Source of the DNA: Eledone cirrhosa
Lineage: Eukaryota
DNA: 64,000 nt
Assembly (NCBI GenBank): GCA_964016885.1
Contig: OZ024763.1
Location: forward strand, 15,810,001-15,874,000
Direction: 5' to 3'
Part shown: positions 3,108 to 63,659 of the stretch, one piece after another
How the letters are laid out: each line of letters opens with the position of its first letter
Numbering within the stretch: the first letter of the stretch is position 1
The notes under the pieces: generated by a model
The model's database searches: none
What the model was told of the DNA's origin: nothing
Seen by the model: the letters and a program-made list of their open reading frames with translations, nothing else
Translations under genes and position numbers: made by a program

Positions 3108-3331
3108 CAATGCTGTGATATATATTTCAATGACGACACTGGCCACACTGTTCTGTGTGCGAGTGTCGTGACATCATCAGACAGCTTGTTACGTAATAAG
3201 GTTATGTTTCCGAGGCAATCCAAATTGAATCAACATGGGAACGGATGAAGTTCGTGCTTTTGGGTTTTTCATCCGTTCCCTTGTCGATTCAATTTGGATT
3301 GCCTCGGAAACATAACCTTATTATGTAACAA

Positions 3332-3405
3332 GCTGTCTGATGATGTCACGACACTCGCACACAGAACAGTGTGGCCAGTGTCGTCATTGAAATATATATC
3401 ACAGC
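3332..3405 (+). ncRNA. Type I hammerhead ribozyme motif (mirror copy on - strand at 3112-3185)
   Basis: GCTGT-CTGATGA-[long stem II ACGACACT/AGTGTCGT]-GAAA-TATATA-TC-ACAGC. Stem I is perfect, but the 10.1/11.1 pair is non-canonical (T/T). Confidence 0.65.
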
Positions 3406-12283: not shown

Positions 12284-12344
12284 TTTGATTATATATATTT
12301 CAAGAGCAACCAAGACAACATAGGTGCACTTTCATCAGATAAAA
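12284..12344 (-). ncRNA. Type I hammerhead motif
   Basis: Reverse complement: TTTTAT-CTGATGA-AAG..CTT-GAAA-TATATA-TA-ATCAAA. Confidence 0.7.
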
Positions 12345-12454
12345 TACAAAGTTTGTTTTATAAACCCATGAAAATTTTACCTTATCGATTGGAAATTCAC
12401 TGGATAAAGTAGACTTTTCATAGATACGTCTCTATTTATAAAAGGAACTTTGTA

Positions 12455-12515
12455 TTTTATCTGATGAAAGCGCACCAATGTTGTCTTGGTTGCCCTTGAA
12501 ATATATATAATAAAA
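12455..12515 (+). ncRNA. Type I hammerhead ribozyme motif
   Basis: TTTTAT-CTGATGA-AAG(CGCACCAA..TTGGTTGCC)CTT-GAAA-TATATA-TA^ATAAAA. Stem I is a perfect 6 bp. Predicted cut after 12509. Confidence 0.8.
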
Positions 12516-13402: not shown

Positions 13403-14881
13403 ATCATCATCATCATCATCATCATCAACGTTTAACGTCCGTGTTCCACGCTTGCATGGGTTTGGACGGGGGTAGTCCCACTTGAGGCAAGAGTGATTGT
13501 CTTGCTCGCATAGGACTGTCTGGCAGGTTTTCTACAGTTGGATGCCCTTCCTAACACCAACCACATTTACAGTGTGGGTCTGGGAGGTTTTTACCGTGTT
13601 GCCTACACGGCCACATTACAGCGTGGACTGTGTGTTTTTTTGTCGTGACACCTACACGATCTCATTTGTTTCGGCCTCGATGGCGCGGCACCAACATAAC
13701 TTTACATAGAACGGGGGTGGTGTGGATCGGGTGGGGGTGGGGTGGGGGGGGGGGGGGGGGGGGGGGTGTATTTTGTTAGAGATGCCTACTGGCTGGAGTA
13801 GGTTTTACTATATATTTAGGTAAGGCGGGTCTTCTCTGTTACTGAGTACCGCCAAAGGTCTCGGTCCAGTGACATTGTCTTGGAGAGGTGTAAGTGTGTG
13901 ATGTCGGAGTTTATCAGCTCGTCCCAGGTTTTTCTAGGTCTGCCTATTCCGTGACTACCGTCTATCTTTATTGCCCTGCACTTTGTTATACAGCTATCGA
14001 CTTTCATGCGCATCACGTGTCCATACCAACGTAGCCTTCTCTCGAGTAAACAACATCTGATCCCTCTTATCTCTAATTTTTTCCTTAGTTCGTTTATGCT
14101 TTGCCGTTCACGTATATTACTGTTACACATCCAGCGGAGCATGCAAGCTTCGTTCCTCTCTAGTCTGCGTATATCCTCTGCACACAATGCCCAGGTCTCA
14201 CTGCCATGCAGCATTGCTGTTCGTATGCAGGCATCGTACAACCTGCCTTTCATTTTTAGTGAGAACCCTTTAGCAGCTAATAGTGGTATAAGCTCTCTGA
14301 ACTTTTTCCAACCAGTTCTGACTCTAGCTACAGTACTTTCAGAGCACCCTCCCCCACTGCTGATTTTATCGCCCAGGTAACGGAAGCTGTCCACTATTTC
14401 TATAGAACCCTCTGCGCAATTGAAAGAGCTAGTAGTTTGTGGGCACTTGCTGCTACTTATTGCACCAGAGCACCGGCCACATGTAAAATCTATGTTCTTA
14501 GTTAGCTTACCTGTGATCCCACTACATCTTTTATGCACCCATACTTTGCATTTAGGACATAAAATGGAGTTTCTACCTACGCCTTTCCTACACACCGAGC
14601 ACGACCATTTCCCAGAAGGGACCGCCGCCTTGTTTTCTTTCCTACAAACTAGTACTTTGGTCTTAGCCAGGTTAATTTTAAGTCCTTTTGACTCTAGGCC
14701 GTGCTTCCATGTTTGGAATTTCTTCTCTAGCTCGGCCATTGATTCCGCTATGAGTGTCAGGTCGTCTGCGTATAGGAGTTCCCATGGGCAGCCTGTCTTG
14801 AACTCCTCTGTTATAGCCTGAAGGGCAATAATAAATAGTAGTGGACTGAGAACAGAGCCCTGATGGACGCCAACTTTTACG

Positions 14882-14882
<1 letters not shown>
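13403..14882 (-). mobile_element. 5'-truncated RTE-clade LINE (~1.5 kb)
   Basis: RT ORF fragment, ~390-bp 3' UTR and (GAT)n tail. The 5' end abuts (TA)n. Confidence 0.92.
13816..14882 (-). CDS. Reverse transcriptase C-terminal part with an inserted PHD-type zinc finger (partial, frame uninterrupted)
   Basis: GVHQGSVLSPLLF, LLYADDL, GLKINLAKTK, FRYLG and RLRWYGHVMR, plus a Cys4-His-Cys3 motif at 14470-14601. The annotated start at 14925 lies in (TA)n and is not real. Confidence 0.9.
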
Positions 14883-14922
<40 letters not shown>

Positions 14923-15093
14923 CACAGATTAAAAGTTTAAGCAAACAATTTCTAAAGGGTGAAAACAGAAATTGTTTGCTTAAACATTTAATCTGTGTTA
15001 ATAATAAATATTCACTCTACGGGTTATATAATATTTATATAGATGTGGGTTCTGTAAGCCATAGTGAAGGCAATCCATCTGGGAGAGCAGACA

Positions 15094-15898: not shown

Positions 15899-16156
15899 TG
15901 TTTTTTTTTTGTTCTACCCAGTCCGTAGCTTCCATCAATATATATATTGAAGTGACCGAGACCCCCTAGCAGACACTGAAGAGGGGACCTGTCACATGTT
16001 TGTGCTTTCCTTTTATTTCTAAATACAGTTTATCAAGTAACCACACAGCCCCTTGTTCCTTCTAAATTTTTGTTAATTTTTTGCTGTGACCTGTTCTTTC
16101 TCTCCATCTCCCTTATTATTAACTCTTTCCCTTTCTCTCTCCTTCTCACTTATACC

Positions 16157-16583
16157 CTCTTTCTCTCTGCTCCCTTACTACCGTTTTCTCTCGTCTGCCT
16201 CTTTCTCTCTGTTCCCTTACTACCGTTTTCTCTCGTCTGCCTCTTTCTCTCTGCTCCCTTACTACCGTTTTCTCTCGTCTGCCTCTTTCTCTCTGCTCCC
16301 TTACTACCGCTTTCTCTCGTCTGCCTCTTTCTCTCTGCTCCCTTACTACCGTTTTCTCTCGTCTGCCTCTTTCTCTCTGTTCCCTTACTACCGCTTTCTC
16401 TCGTCTGCCTCTTTCTCTCTGCTCCCTTACTACCGTTTTCTCTCGTCTGCCTCTTTCTCTCTGTTCCCTTACTACCGTTTTCTCTCGTCTGCCTCTTTCT
16501 CTCTGCTCCCTTACTACCGTTTTCTCTCGTCTGCCTCTTTCTCTCTGCTCCCTTACTACCGTTTTCTCTCGTCTGCCTCTTTT
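16157..16583. repeat. 42-bp minisatellite, about 10 copies
   Basis: Unit CTCTTTCTCTCTG(C/T)TCCCTTACTACCG(T/C)TTTCTCTCGTCTGC. Confidence 0.95.
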
Positions 16584-16776
16584 CCCCTACTCCCACCAAG
16601 GTTAAACTTGTTTTTCTTCACTCTCCCTATCTTGCTGTCAATAAGACCTCTGCCTCATGTCCAGCCACCGGTTTGACTTCCCTCTCTCTCCCGGTTACTT
16701 ACATACTTGTGCTTCTCCTCGTCCCCCCCACCCCTTTATCAGTATGTTTTCTGCACCTTTTTTCTCTTTTTTTCCT

Positions 16777-16877
16777 TCCCCAATAACTTACAAAAGTTAT
16801 TGATACACTGGAGATAGATATATTGTCTTTAATGCGTTGAAATGTCCAAGACCCCCAGCAGACAACTGATGAGGGGA
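16777..16877 (+). ncRNA. Non-circularly permuted (pseudoknotted) hammerhead ribozyme candidate
   Basis: Strand order GATAT-A-TTGTC ... TGAAATGTC ... GACAA-CTGATGA-G. Its helices covary with the copy at 51107-51210. Confidence 0.65.
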
Positions 16878-17049
16878 CCTCTCCCTTGTTTGTGCTTTCC
16901 TTTTATTTCTAAATACAGTTTATCAAGTAACACACACAGCCCCTTGTTCCTTCTAAATTTATATATATGTATATATCGATCAACTTTCGTCAAATTGGAC
17001 CAACTAAACAATGTTTCCGTGGGTCTTTCCAGTTGCTAGTACTATGTAT

Positions 17050-42138: not shown

Positions 42139-42345
42139 TCAAGATATGAACCTGTCTATAGAATTTTTTCTGCGTTTGTTACTCTAAATATAGTTTTTAA
42201 AGAATTCCCTTTTCTTTAAACCCATCAACCAATGACCTCCACTCATCCCAATCACCACCCTCTCCTACCACCATATTACTTGGACAGTCGGCTTCCTGGT
42301 GATTTCTCCCGAATGAAACAGTTCTAGTCTTGTAGAACCCTTTTT

Positions 42346-42384
<39 letters not shown>

Positions 42385-42387
<3 letters not shown>

Positions 42388-42729
42388 GGTCGTTTTGGAA
42401 GCCTCAACAATGCAGATGGGTAAATCTCCGGATCGGTTATTTATTTGTGGTCCTGGGTGTTTGATCCAAAGTGCTTCCTTGATTCTTAAAGTGTCGACGT
42501 TGCGTTCTGTCGCTAACACTGTGACAATGGGCCTTCCGTCTTTGTTTCCGCATTTGGTTATGTGTTTCCGGAAAGACGAGGCCCTGGTGTTGTTGTGCTC
42601 CTTGATCCGGATATGTAGTGGCCGGATTGTGCTACCGATATAGTAGTCGTTGCACTTGTGTAACCACTTTAAGAATCAAGGAAGCACTTTGGATCAAACG
42701 CCTAGGACCACAAACAAATAACCGATCCG
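42385..42729 (-). mobile_element. Penelope-like element fragment: GIY-YIG endonuclease C-terminal part with an inverted duplication
   Basis: The minus strand from 42660 translates to HKCNDYYIGSTIRPLHIRIKEH..LRIKEALWIKHPGPQINNR. 42665-42728 is an inverted copy of 42430-42493. Confidence 0.85.
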
Positions 42730-46746: not shown

Positions 46747-46929
46747 ATCTATCTATCGCTCTCTCTCTCTCTCTTTATCTCTTGTTCACACCTCCCACTA
46801 TCTCTATTTCTCTCTTCCTCTCTCCTCTTACTATCTCTATTTTACATCTCCCCTTCCTCTCTCTAACCATCTTTCTCTATCTCTCTCCTTCAACACAATG
46901 ATCGCTCTCTCTCCCTCTCTAAACATCTG

Positions 46930-49900
46930 TCTCTTTCCTACATCTCGTTCCTTCAACACAATACTCTCTCTCCTACATCTCGTTCCTTCAACACAATACT
47001 CTCTCTCTCTCCTACATCTCCTTCCTTCAACACAATACTCTCTCTCCTACATCTCGTTCCTTCAACACAATACTCTCTCTCTCTCCTACATCTCCTTCCT
47101 TCAACACAATACTCTCTCTCCTACATCTCCTTCCTTCAACACAATACTCTCTCTCCTACATCTCGTTCCTTCAACACAATACTCTCTCTCTCTCCTACAT
47201 CTCCTTCCTTCAACACAATACTCTCTCTCTCTCCTACATCTCCTTCCTTCAACACAATACTCTCTCTCTCTCCTACATCTCCTTCCTTCAACACAATACT
47301 CTCTCTCTCTCCTACATCTCCTTCCTTCAACACAATACTCTCTCTCTCTCCTACATCTCCTTCCTTCAACACAATACTCTCTCTCTCTCCTACATCTCCT
47401 TCCTTCAACACAATACTCTCTCTTTCCTACATCTCGTTCCTTCAACACAACACTCTCTCTCTCTCTCCTACATCTCCTTCCTTCAACACAACACTCTCTC
47501 TCTCTCTCCTACATCTCCTTCCTTCAACACAATACTCTCTCTCTCTCCTACATCTCCTTCCTTCAACACAATACTCTCTCTCCTACATCTCGTTCCTTCA
47601 ACACAATACTCTCTCTCTCTCCTACATCTCCTTCCTTTAACACAATACTCTCTCTCTCTCCTACATCTCCTTCCTTCAACACAATACTCTCTCTCTCCTA
47701 CATCTCGTTCCTTCAACACAATACTCTCTCTCTCTCCTACATCTCCTTCCTTCAACACAATACTCTCTCTCTCTCCTACATCTCCTTCCTTCAACACAAT
47801 ACTCTCTCTCTCCTTCATCTCGTTCCTTCAACACAATACTCCCTCTTTCCTACATCTCGTTCCTTCAACACAATACTCTCTCTCTCCTACATCTCGTTCC
47901 TTCAACACAATACTCTCTCTCTCCAACATCTCCTTCCTTCAACACAATACTCTCTCTTTCCTACATCTCGTTCCTTCAACACAACACTCTCTCTCTCTCT
48001 CCTACATCTCCTTCCTTCAACACAATACTCTCTCTCTCCTACATCTCCTTCCTTCAACACAATACTCTCTCTCTCCTACATCTCCTTCCTTCAACACAAT
48101 ACTCTCTCTCTCTCCTACATCTCGTTCCTTCAACACAATACTCCCTCTTTCCTACATCTCGTTCCTTCAACACAATACTCTCTCTCTCCTACATCTCGTT
48201 CCTTCAACACAATACTCTCTCTCTCCTACATCTCCTTCCTTCAACACAATACTCTCTCTCTCCTACATCTCCTTCCTTCAACACAATACTCTCTCTCTCC
48301 TACATCTCCTTCCTTCAACACAATACTCTCTCTTTCCTACATCTCCTTCCTTCAACACAATACTCTCTCTCTCTCCTACATCTCCTTCCTTCAACACAAT
48401 ACTCTCTCTTTCCTACATCTCGTTCCTTCAACACAATACTCTCTCTCCTACATCTCGTTCCTTCAACACAATACTCTCTCTTTCCTACATCTCGTTCCTT
48501 CAACACAACACTCTCTCTCTCTCTCCTACATCTCCTTCCTTCAACACAATACTCTCTCTCTCCTACATCTCCTTCCTTCAACACAATACTCTCTCTCTCT
48601 CCTACATCTCCTTCCTTCAACACAATACTCTCTCTCTCCTATATCTCGTTCCTTCAACACAATACTCTCTCTCTCTCTCTCTCTCCTACATCACCTTCCT
48701 TCAACACAATACTCTCTCTCTCTCTTTCCTACATCTCCTTCCTTCAACACAATACTCTCTCTTTCCTACATCTCGTTCCTTCAACACAATACTCTCTCTC
48801 TCTCTCCTACATCTCCTTCCTTCAACACAATACTCTCTCTCTCTCCTACATCTCCTTCCTTCAACACAATACTCTCTCTCCTACATCTCGTTCCTTCAAC
48901 ACAATACTCTCTCTCTCTCCTACATCTCCTTCCTTCAACACAATACTCTCTCTCTCTCCTACATCTCCTTCCTTCAACACAATACTCTCTCTCTCCTACA
49001 TCTCCTTCCTTCAACACAATACACTCTCTCTCCTACATCTCCTTCCTTCAACACAATACTCTCTATCTCTCCTACATCTCCTTCCTTCAACACAATACTC
49101 TCTCTCTCTTTCCTACATCTCGTTCCTTCAACACAATACTCTCTCTCCTACATCTCGTTCCTTCAACACAATACTCTCTCTCTCTCTCCTACATCTCGTT
49201 CCTTCAACACAATACTCTCTCTTTCCTACATCTCGTTCCTTCAACACAATACTCTCTCTTTCCTACATCTCGTTCCTTCAACACAATACTCTCTCTCCTA
49301 CATCTCGTTCCTTCAACACAATACTTTCTCTCTCTCTCCTACATCTCGTTCCTTCAACACAATACTCTCTCTCTCTCGCCTACATCTCGTTCCTTCAACA
49401 CAATACTCTCTCTTTCCTACATCTCGTTCCTTCAACACAATACTCTCTCTTTCCTACATCTCGTTCCTTCAACACAATACTCTCTCTTTCCTACATCTCG
49501 TTCCTTCAACACAATACTCTCTCTTTCCTACATCTCGTTCCTTCAACACAATACTCTCTCTCCTACATCTCGTTCCTTCAACACAATACTCTCTCTCTCT
49601 CTCCTACATCTCGTTCCTTCAACACAATACTCTCTCTCTCTCTCTCCTACATCTCGTTCCTTCAACACAATACTCTCTCTTTCCTACATCTCGTTCCTTC
49701 AACACAATACTCTCTCTTTCCTACATCTCGTTCCTTCAACACAATACTCTCTCTCCTACATCTCGTTCCTTCAACACAATACTCTCTCTCTCTCTCCTAC
49801 ATCTCGTTCCTTCAACACAATACTCTCTCTCTCTCTCCTACATCTCGTTCCTTCAACACAATACTCTCTCTTTCCTACATCTCGTTCCTTCAACACAATA

Positions 49901-50053
49901 CTCTCTCTCTCCTACATCTCGTTCCTTCAACACAATACTCTCTCTCTCTCCTACATCTCGTTCCTTCAACACAATACTCTCTCTGTCTCCTACATCTCGT
50001 TCCTTCAACACAATACTCTCTCTCTCTTCTACATCTCGTTCCTTCAACACAAT
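46930..50053. repeat. ~37-45-bp minisatellite, about 78 copies
   Basis: CCTACATCTC(G/C)TTCCTTCAACACAATA(CT)n. Confidence 0.96.
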
Positions 50054-50186
50054 GCTATCAACTACTGTATCACTTCCAATGTAACCGATGGTGAACAGTT
50101 AGATTTGGCAGGGTTCTAACACTGCCTGCCAGTATTAAAGCTACCGATCTATCTTTGAGATTAAAAGTTCAAACCTCACCGTTATC

Positions 50187-50997: not shown

Positions 50998-51051
<54 letters not shown>

Positions 51052-51106
51052 AATATGATAATAAGGACGCTGCGGAGTTGCAAATGGGTTACATATGAAT
51101 AAAGTT

Positions 51107-51210
51107 TGTCCTTCATCAGTGGTCTTCCAACCATCATAGGCATTTCATCGCTTTAAAGACCATATACCTCCGGTTGGTGCGAGCAACGGCTAAAAAAAGT
51201 CGTTGGGACA
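51107..51210 (-). ncRNA. Non-circularly permuted (pseudoknotted) hammerhead ribozyme candidate, best-preserved copy
   Basis: Reverse complement: TGTCC-[hairpin]-C-TCGC-A-CCAACC-GG-AGGTAT-A^TGGTC-TTTAAA-GCGA-T-GAAA-TGCCT-ATGAT-GGTTGG-AA-GACCA-CTGATGA-A-GGACA. Confidence 0.7.
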
Positions 51211-51675
51211 CGTAAATAAAGGGGACGCGAGGGTAAACAAACAAAATGGTGAAGCAACAGAAAGTGAGGAAGAGAGAGACAAGTCCCAGATTTCTATGAA
51301 TTTAAATTCGGTGAAATCGTGAACGAGAGATGCAATGTATGTGATTGACGAGCAGATCGACACTGGAGTCGGGTCCATAACTTGCATGGGGGACGTTGAG
51401 CCAAATAACTGCGAAACACGCGTAACAGTTTGATGCACAATAAAAATATAAATACATAGAAACAAAACTTCATCTTTTTTCTTATATATATATATGGGGA
51501 TTGATAAAATCGATTATACACACAACTTATAAATTCCTGGTCTGGTGCCAACCTTACTAATCAATATCTTTATTGTAAATATGTTGTTTTAAGTATATAT
51601 ATATTTATTAAAATAACAGATTAAAGTTTAAGCAAAGAATCGCTGCTTTCACCCTTAACGGGATCTTCTGAAATA

Positions 51676-53616: not shown

Positions 53617-54760
53617 CAGGTGTTGGACAAAATAATGGAAACACCTTAAAATTTCAAACAAATTTATTTTAATATGGGGTAGGACAGCCTTTAGCAGTAA
53701 TTACAGCTTCAATTCTACGAGCTATGGGCTCGTACTAGGTTTGAATTGTTTCCAAAGGAATGTTTGTCCATTCTTCAGCTAAAACAGTCTCCAGTTCTTG
53801 TAGTGATAATGGCGGAGGATATCGACCCCTTACTTGTTTTTCTAAAATGCACCACAAATGTTCAATACTTGTTTCTACTTTAGGCACAAGGCTAGCAATT
53901 ACCCAGTGTATTACTGGTACTTTATTTTATCGACCCTCGTAAGGATGAAAGGCAAAGTCAACCTCGGCGGGATTTGAACTCAGATCATAAAGGCATGTAA
54001 CTCTATGCTTCAAAGCATATATAGTAATAATTGTTTCTACTTTAGGCACAAGACCAGCAATTATCCCAGTGCATTACTGGTACTTTATTTTATCGACCCT
54101 CGTAAGGATGAAAGGCAAAGTCAACCTCGGCGGGATTTGAACTCAGATCATAAAGGCATGTAACTCTATGCTTCAAAGCATATATAGTAATAATTGTTTC
54201 TACTTTAGGCACAAGACCAGCAATTATCCCAGTGCATTACTGGTACTTTATTTTATCGACCCTCGTAAGGATGAAAGGCAAAGTCAACCTCGGCGGGATT
54301 TGAACTCAGATCATAAAGGGAGGTAACTATGCTTCAAAGCATATATAGTAATAATTGTTTCTACTTTAGGCACAAGGCCAGCAATTACCCAGTGCATTAC
54401 TGGTACTTTATTTTATCGACCCCGTAAGGATGAAAGGCAAAGTCAACCTCGGCGGGATTTGAACTCATCGTAAAGGGAGGTAACTATGCTTCAAAGCATA
54501 TATAGTAATAATTGTTTCTACTTTAGGCACAAGGCCAGCAATAACCCAGTGTATTACTGGTACTTTATTTTATCGACCCCGTAAGGATGAAAGGCAAAGT
54601 CAACCTCGGCGGGATTTGAACTCAGATCGTAAAGGGACGTAACTATGCTGGAAAGCATGGTGTCCGACCCCGACCCTCTACCGATACTGCCAATCCACCA
54701 CAAATGTTCAATAATATTGAGATCTGGGGACTGTGGTGGCCAGATAAGATGTTCAGCTTG
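53617..54760 (-). mobile_element. Tc1 transposon 3' fragment (defective transposase C-terminus plus TIR), split by a SINE array
   Basis: TIR TA|CAGGTGTTGGACAAAATAATGGAAACACC. The minus strand reads WPPQSPDLNIIEHLW / [59 protein letters not shown]. Confidence 0.88.
53868..54697 (-). mobile_element. Five tandem SINE family 1 units within one 18-bp TSD
   Basis: CACCACAAATGTTCAATA at 53850-53867 and 54696-54713. Units are ~160 bp. Confidence 0.85.
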
Positions 54761-63330: not shown

Positions 63331-63366
63331 TCTTAACGTTTCGGACGCTAGTCCTTCATCAGAAGA
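63331..63366 (-). ncRNA. Minimal type I hammerhead motif
   Basis: Reverse complement: TCTT-CTGATGA-A-GGAC-TAGC-GTCC-GAAA-CG-TT-AAGA. Confidence 0.7.
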
Positions 63367-63659
63367 AAGAATAAGAAATAAGATAGATTGAGGAGAAGGG
63401 CGGGATGGAATTGGAAAAAATGTCTTTAGATAAAAATAACAGGTCCATTCATGTTGACATCTCTTGCAAAACTGTTGGTGTTGGCGTTTTGTGTATGATT
63501 TATTTTTTAGAAAAGTGGATGATGGAGCGCGTCTATTCTTCTTGTGACGCTAAACCCCGCCAGATGCAGACTGCGCTTCAACATAAGATATTTTTCTCCA
63601 CAAAGTTCGATCACCAACAGCAGAGTTCAGAGAGCAAAGATCAAGTCCAGTCCATAAGT

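Follow-up and report, generated by a model that had tools for sequence, protein, structure and literature searches.

A candidate four-strand hammerhead ribozyme of S-G-C block order in Penelope-like units of Eledone cirrhosa

Introduction

Can a hammerhead ribozyme be assembled from blocks in a non-circular order when its stem II is supplied by a separate strand lying upstream? The question is raised by the minus strand of a 64,000-nucleotide stretch of the Eledone cirrhosa genome (GCA_964016885.1, contig OZ024763.1, positions 15,810,001 to 15,874,000; hereafter the window), where a first-pass annotation had proposed a mobile-element-borne, permuted hammerhead with stem II replaced by a four-way junction provided by an upstream strand. 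Among Penelope-like retroelements, which leave partial tandems and inverted 5'-truncated copies, the Naiads prefer (TA)n as target and are described as lacking canonical hammerheads, only 'HHR_core' or 'HHR_half_core' being flagged, and because they thrive without them it was argued that ribozymes may merely parasitise Penelope-like elements (Craig 2021, PMC8557442).

Results

All bases of the hammerhead core are found in the minus strand from 51210 to 51107, in the block order site-GAAA-CUGAnGA, which is that of the published non-circular type SGC (Table 1). Read 5' to 3', the motif opens with the outer-helix strand, the hairpin, a single unpaired C, the stem-II strand and the joining-helix strand, continues with the 3' strand of stem III and its U-A, a stem I strand, a TTAAA linker, the stem-II partner, a T and GAAA, and closes with the 5' strand of stem III, the joining-helix partner, the second stem I strand, CTGATGA, an A and the outer partner. 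Stems I and III flank the CUGAnGA, the GAAA and the U-H site as the geometry of a hammerhead requires. Stem II differs from that of three-strand SGC: it consists of a stub of 1 bp and of a junction built by the upstream fourth strand. Fast hammerheads need a contact between stems I and II, and here the 6-bp joining helix would provide it. The first-pass annotation was right about the non-circular permutation, about the helices of copy 2, all of which are present on the minus strand, and about the cut position, which agrees with the U-A site; its stem I of 5 bp is actually 6 bp long (75 of the 76 alignment rows are paired at columns 61 and 95). The upstream strand that it invoked also stands, but the four-way form of its junction is not general, since it depends on a hairpin that is optional and absent in one older family.

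Table 1. Positions of the motif, its parts and related copies in the window
Feature	Position	Strand	Basis
Four-strand type-SGC hammerhead, candidate, intact copy 2 (family A, subfamily A1)	51107..51210	-	sequence, descriptor, alignment
Fourth (bridging) strand, whole	51172..51210	-	helices 1-4 each with double changes, 92-95% of their cells paired
Outer helix	51210-51206 with 51111-51107	-	sequence
Hairpin	51205-51199 with 51190-51184 (span 51205-51184)	-	one A-C mismatch
Stem-II helix	51182-51179 with 51151-51148	-	sequence
Extra (stem I-II joining) helix	51177-51172 with 51132-51127	-	sequence
Stem III	51169-51164 with 51143-51138	-	sequence
Stem I, 6 bp	51162-51157 with 51125-51120	-	sequence, alignment
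Site and predicted cut	U51164-A51163; cut 51163/51162	-	sequence
Core CUGAUGA	51119-51113	-	sequence
10.1 opposite 11.1	A51112 opposite T51147	-	sequence
Block S (stem III 3' strand, U-A site, stem I strand)	51157..51169	-	sequence, descriptor, alignment
Conserved TTAAW linker, stem I strand to stem II strand	51152..51156	-	partly fixed by search pattern
Block G (stem II partner, 11.1, GAAA, stem III 5' strand)	51138..51151	-	sequence, alignment
Block C (stem I strand, CUGAUGA, 10.1, outer-helix partner), preceded by the joining-helix partner (51132-51127)	51107..51132	-	
Copy 1 (family B ribozyme with decayed stem-II helix; site predicted at 16822/16823)	16777..16877	+	
5'-truncated half copy (3' half of ribozyme, core at 15976)	~15947-15988	+	890 nt before copy 1
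Family B partial tandem	15947..16976	+	ribozyme 3' half, one internally tandem-expanded unit, copy 1, tail ending at (TA)n
Non-coding family A unit, 5'-truncated copy, ~288 of ~617 nt	51043..51330	-	3' end runs into (TA)n

A descriptor of the four-strand form matched copy 2 and nothing else in the window, and had no match in 300 dinucleotide shuffles, both strands being searched. Rfam gave no match in the window at gathering level, and the ten weak matches obtained at E up to 10 included no ribozyme family. The motif is thus neither a circular permutation nor a gathering-score match of hammerhead types I-III, and searches for those types are blind to it, as had been foreseen: the descriptors of Craig 2021 also missed it. 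Nested folding of the motif is not unusual (z = -1.56), as expected of an RNA that is pseudoknotted.

Copy 1, which had been put forward as a second instance, is a four-strand member, but a decayed one of another family; it fails the descriptor, its ATAC/GCGT helix contains a mismatch, and most of its relatives read ACGC where it has ATAC. The window also holds a canonical minimal type I hammerhead (63335-63370, minus strand, core at 63362), missed at the Rfam gathering level and identical to the one behind long-ORF, C-terminal-endonuclease Penelope-like copies elsewhere in the genome. Other CTGATGA-bearing repeats, as inverted pairs and a single copy at 3174-3343, 12332-12467 and 38040-38046, are probably type I hammerheads of further Penelope-like families. 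A 136-aa frame with a YIG-type motif (42265-42675, minus) looks like a piece of a Penelope-like GIY-YIG endonuclease and has no Pfam match at E 0.1; a 370-aa frame (13816-14928, minus) is one that we take to resemble the C-terminal part of a LINE reverse transcriptase (RT). A long array of ~37-nt units occupies 46870-50059, and an array of ~163-nt SINE-like units 53900-54600.

Across the 3.0 Gb genome, the first look with copy 2 as query produced 1,540 candidates, and 43 matches of 96-100% identity were scored; with copy 1 there were 2,167 candidates and 39 other scored matches of 88-94% identity. A loose pattern consisting of the linker, GAAA and core at the right spacing matched 17,739 times (8,698 + 9,041) against 206 (98 + 108) in the reversed control. 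The family is present in four sequencing runs of contigs from one study. Fetched loci supplied 140 instances, of which those in the three biggest clusters (93, of which 79 were distinct) were aligned; leaving out three rows with internal deletions gave 76 rows in eight subfamilies (alignment A1), and the structure tested on it was named in advance. Pairing was found in 93.8% of 2,581 cells, which count related sequences and not independent events, against 80.9% after shuffling and 29-44% with slid partners; stem I was paired in 98.7% of its cells and stem III in 87.5%. Double changes occur in 21 of 34 pairs and in each of the six multi-pair helices, including five of the six pairs of the joining helix, and there is no excess of further pair types (46 against 48.8 when shuffled). 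Homologues keep the helices, on which the earlier reading had been staked.

The same holds between groups of copies. Subfamily majorities, eight in number, show a double change in 18 of 34 pairs, pairing stands at 166/176 within subfamilies against 961/1,232 across them, and 14 of the 17 pairs that changed between A1 and family B remain paired. The catalytic core bases are kept in all eight majorities, an invariance that the search patterns partly impose. Single copies decay, and the strict descriptor is passed by 41 of the 76. Positions 10.1 and 11.1 are pairable throughout the alignment (U-A in 38 rows, U-G in 38), and an alternative junction register, which fits worse, was rejected. A second pattern (502 genome matches against 98 in the control) led to older families of low similarity: by eye, families C and E keep all helices, with a G10.1-C11.1 pair, and family D keeps the bridging strand and is without the hairpin. 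One copy of family D (L302) can be read with a direct stem II of the three-strand kind, a reading that was discarded because the family does not show it generally.

The carrier of the motif is a pyrimidine-rich unit of ~617 nt in family A, in which no tRNA-like head was found. Units lie in head-to-tail partial tandems with periods mostly of 494-706 nt (hereafter 0.5-0.7 kb units), up to four of them at locus L220, and also in inverted 5'-truncated pairs; in most copies (TA)n begins 14-101 nt after the core, at A/T microhomologies. This anatomy is Penelope-like, in keeping with the mobile-element carriage first proposed. At one locus (L485, 1-880, minus) the neighbour of a family A-type copy is an RT fragment from a different Penelope-like element, the two lying tail to tail; the RT match, on the opposite strand and belonging to the neighbouring element, was dismissed as a partner.

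What might mobilise such units? Naiad-like RT fragments are present in the genome, but all scored copies are broken, with open frames of at most 223 aa against up to 828 aa in other Penelope-like copies. Weak GIY-YIG matches near the N-terminus in three of five full-length relative proteins of the RT fragment fit a Naiad. At the fetched genome loci no four-strand ribozyme was found downstream of a Naiad-like RT, the 3' regions aligning with no intact ribozyme among them, and no sense-strand RT was found in the window or in the scanned ribozyme-bearing loci. A pattern of the octopus Naiad end matched the genome nine times against seven in the control, and neither the word-index protein search nor the search of viral loci yielded an autonomous partner. 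Since the Naiad-like copies are broken while family A copies are 96-100% identical, an active partner was not identified among them. The long-frame Penelope-like copies examined carry a CxxC motif, a GIY-YIG domain after the RT, and the canonical minimal type I hammerhead.

The published Naiad consensi were compared with the motif by eye at the places of core motifs in File S5 of PMC8557442 (for CTGATGA, places 26-55 of 62; for the other three cores, places up to 19; motifs split by line ends are missed). On this reading nine of 54 consensi clearly show the four-strand design and one probably does, in four to five phyla. The clear ones are Naiad-3_Chem, Amil, Aacu and Anas (the last three being near-identical corals), Naiad-2_Movir, Plae, Obim, Ovul and one arthropod entry (part 19), probably EuTe; the probable one is Bfor, with a stem I of 2 bp. 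In Plae the outer helix is AGAGG/CCTCT, followed by an 8-bp hairpin, GGCCCC/GGGGCC, an 8-bp joining helix, a 4-bp stem III, a U-A site and GAGGA/TCCTC. In most of these ends 10.1 and 11.1 each pair with the upstream strand and not with each other, a register that is the window junction after a one-step branch migration; the 10.1-11.1 pair of the first-pass annotation is the better of the two registers in the 76 aligned copies, but not a general one. Two octopus consensi share the hairpin loop with subfamilies A4-A6.

Other Naiad ends depart from this design. Seven of eight nematode ends (parts 13-16) are clean type CSG with a joining helix, and one spider entry resembles three-strand SGC with an insert, again by eye. 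The Esco and Ppla ends match partially, and in CGi, Olur, Chem-1, Chem-4, Ebur and Tama (two oysters, two Clytia, hagfish and one fish) inspection by eye found no clean four-strand match. Spider, ostracod and crab ends (parts 16-20) have cores in long or unclear layouts, and the two oyster ends have a conserved G+C-rich motif in common but no hammerhead core; these ends may hold other ribozyme classes or further topologies. A clean four-strand motif with unrelated helix sequences was present in one metagenome locus (L479, 90-260, minus): among 120 listed metagenome loci the hairpin form was found in none and the relaxed form in two, of which the other (L404), being A/T-rich, was treated as a chance match. 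One of 120 listed, pattern-selected viral loci (L179) passes the descriptor with minimal helices and was likewise put down to chance. A literature search that covered few subscription papers found no description of the four-strand form or of permuted hammerheads in Naiads. The available parts of PMC8370743 and PMC13725137 do not describe the form either, the latter citing other hammerhead variants with extra helices. On novelty, which the first-pass annotation had left to Rfam and the literature, the block order proved to be published already, and the fourth strand was not found described.

Insertion junctions bear on whether the predicted site is cut in vivo. The strand upstream of it is kept in 75 of 88 sampled copies, so that cut RNA would not be the usual template, and three 5' junctions in the same sample lie at the site or at most 3 nt from it, one of them a perfect fold-back. 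Genome-wide, close inverted pairs are fewer around the site (22) than in a control window (41, of which 40 were fetched), but fold-back arms start most often at -1/0 of the predicted cut, where spacers are also shorter: 9 of 22 spacers are 15 nt or longer, against 31 of 40 in the control (p = 0.006; rank test of spacer length, p = 0.004). Counted per locus, junctions at the same offset are not significantly enriched (9/22 against 8/40, p = 0.14), and short palindromes or microhomology at the site can draw junctions and so mimic a cut-site signal. Loci L505, L192 and L520-L541 have fold-back junctions that coincide with the predicted cut or adjoin it, some of them perfect palindromes with the cut at their centre. 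Taken together, the junction statistics give a weak and confounded signal that is suggestive of cutting at the site in vivo.

Discussion

The reading that we favour, at a probability of roughly 80%, is of a hammerhead in S-G-C order whose stem II and stem I-II contact are supplied by an upstream strand, carried on units derived from Naiad-type elements. The upstream strand would pair with the tail of block C, form the optional hairpin, pair with the head of block G and then lie paired beside stem I, where the joining helix would make the contact between stems I and II; blocks G and C directly would contribute no more than one pair to stem II. From hammerhead chemistry and the published SGC assays, the cut is expected after the U-A (51163/51162). 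Transcription reaches block C and the outer helix last, so that no cutting should occur before the whole motif is transcribed, and because the 5' product would be held by four helices, about 20 bp, re-ligation should be favoured. Transcripts of tandem units may thus be cut to unit length and possibly re-ligated to circles, as has been proposed for retrozymes. The 0.5-0.7 kb units, which likely descend from Naiad ends, would be non-autonomous derivatives of Naiad-type Penelope-like elements, mobilised by an RT/endonuclease that in trans may nick (TA)n and prime at A/T microhomology 14-100 nt beyond the core, the template being mostly uncut or circular RNA with occasional stops at the cut site. 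In a Poseidon element, the Penelope-like protein primes internally at A/T-rich sites (PMC11167929).

Does the motif cut at all, and is the upstream strand part of what cuts? Cleavage at the analogous site is published for three-strand SGC RNAs (PMC10085705), but since the canonical stem II, with several direct pairs of the 10.1-11.1 kind, is missing here, activity cannot be assumed from theirs. A fold that is real and selected but has lost cutting or cuts too slowly, and that serves Penelope-like protein binding or stability instead, would accommodate this absence, the 75 of 88 copies that extend across the site, the failure of eight of nine tested frog retrozyme dimers to cleave, and the finding that ribozyme mutants of a Poseidon element had no effect on insertion in vitro (PMC11167929). 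We hold it unlikely, because every site triplet is U-H, the predicted cut is where junction arms peak, and the core is kept in all eight subfamily majorities (partly by construction) and also in Naiad ends from several phyla, for which neither GAAA nor the site had been a selection criterion; it is very probable on this analysis that the four-strand motif self-cleaves. Somewhat less likely again is a minimal three-block SGC ribozyme with a 1-bp stem II, perhaps acting as a dimer, with the upstream strand folding apart from it in a regulatory or accessory role. The pairability of 10.1 and 11.1 in 76 of 76 aligned copies agrees with it, and short-stem hammerheads of Penelope-like elements are said, going by a title, to act as dimers. 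Yet covariation links the upstream strand to three distinct segments flanking the core, at fixed spacing, and 10.1 and 11.1 are not mutually pairable in the majority of Naiad ends, so that there would be no stem II without the upstream strand. That all of this is chance pairing in a repeat, yielding a non-functional RNA, is scarcely credible: the unremarkable nested-fold z-score and the one viral locus in 120, which sets a false-positive floor on pre-filtered DNA, speak for it, but it is refuted by covariation, and the excess of pattern matches over the control, the shuffles, the older families and the cross-phylum Naiad ends all stand against it.

The ribozyme may be as we describe it and yet a Neptune-like element, with a C-terminal endonuclease, may mobilise the young units, or their Naiad ancestry may be long dead; we regard this as a serious contender, though one that falls short of even odds. 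It draws on the short frames of the scored Naiad-like RT copies beside the long ones of other Penelope-like elements, and on the CxxC linker of the latter, which Craig 2021 (PMC8557442) ties to (TA)n bias. Against it, the ribozyme design matches Naiad ends as read by eye, octopus Naiads share the A4-A6 hairpin loop, and the searches scored the best candidates only, so that an intact divergent Naiad could be missed.

How does the four-strand hammerhead compare with known systems? It shares with type SGC (HRIMA-1 and the SGC variant; Eckert et al. 2023, PMC10085705) the S-G-C order, the full core, a short linker between stems I and II and an extra helix that joins these stems. In the published form, however, blocks G and C make a direct stem II of ~5-6 bp (supplement SS_cons), three blocks suffice, and the joining helix comes from a tail after block C, whereas in the window motif both elements come from the upstream strand. 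The 583 SGC sequences of that paper are from metatranscriptomes, none from genomes of known organisms in its available part, compared with ~17,000 pattern matches here in one animal genome. Type CSG (CSG-1, CSG-2), of which the same paper has two metagenomic sequences, is likewise a non-circular permutation with a joining helix, and nematode Naiad ends share its order; its topology differs from that of the window motif. With Naiads the units have in common (TA)n targeting, partial tandems, inverted 5'-truncated copies and, as far as reading by eye goes, the design of the 3'-end ribozyme (PMC8557442), but their longest frame is 51 aa, where a Naiad would have an ORF, linked to the ribozyme, with GIY-YIG at the N-terminus and RT at the C-terminus. 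They resemble the non-LTR retrozymes (Li, Clavereau and Pollet 2026, bioRxiv 10.64898/2026.07.22.740005) in being non-coding tandem units with one hammerhead each, in a length inside the 51-972 bp range of those units, and in being read likewise as non-autonomous Penelope-like derivatives. Those retrozymes were defined, and searched for, by type I hammerheads only, with no Naiad-derived or permuted form in the part of that report available, unlike the S-G-C order found here. What is new is thus the fourth strand and the setting in an animal retroelement, the SGC block order being already known.

On balance we lean towards a wider proposal, in which Naiads and their non-autonomous derivatives would be the main natural home of non-circularly permuted hammerheads. 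An undescribed four-block form with a branch-migrating junction as stem II would occur in cnidarians, an acanthocephalan, an arthropod, cephalopods and probably a ctenophore, and CSG in nematodes, with the Naiad clade itself switching between permutations, and a single animal genome would contain active copies by the tens of thousands, yielding unit-length or circular RNAs. Non-circular permutations would then move from rare metatranscriptome finds to animal genomes at very high copy number, the three-block scheme would gain a fourth block, and the CSG examples would grow from two to a nematode clade. A stem II that depends on a separate strand would be a ready-made switch for RNA engineering. 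How hammerhead permutations interconvert would gain a phylogenetic frame, and ribozyme function in the Penelope-like retrotransposon class would become directly testable. If Naiads carry scrambled hammerheads across phyla, the argument of Craig 2021 that ribozymes may merely parasitise these elements (PMC8557442) falls.
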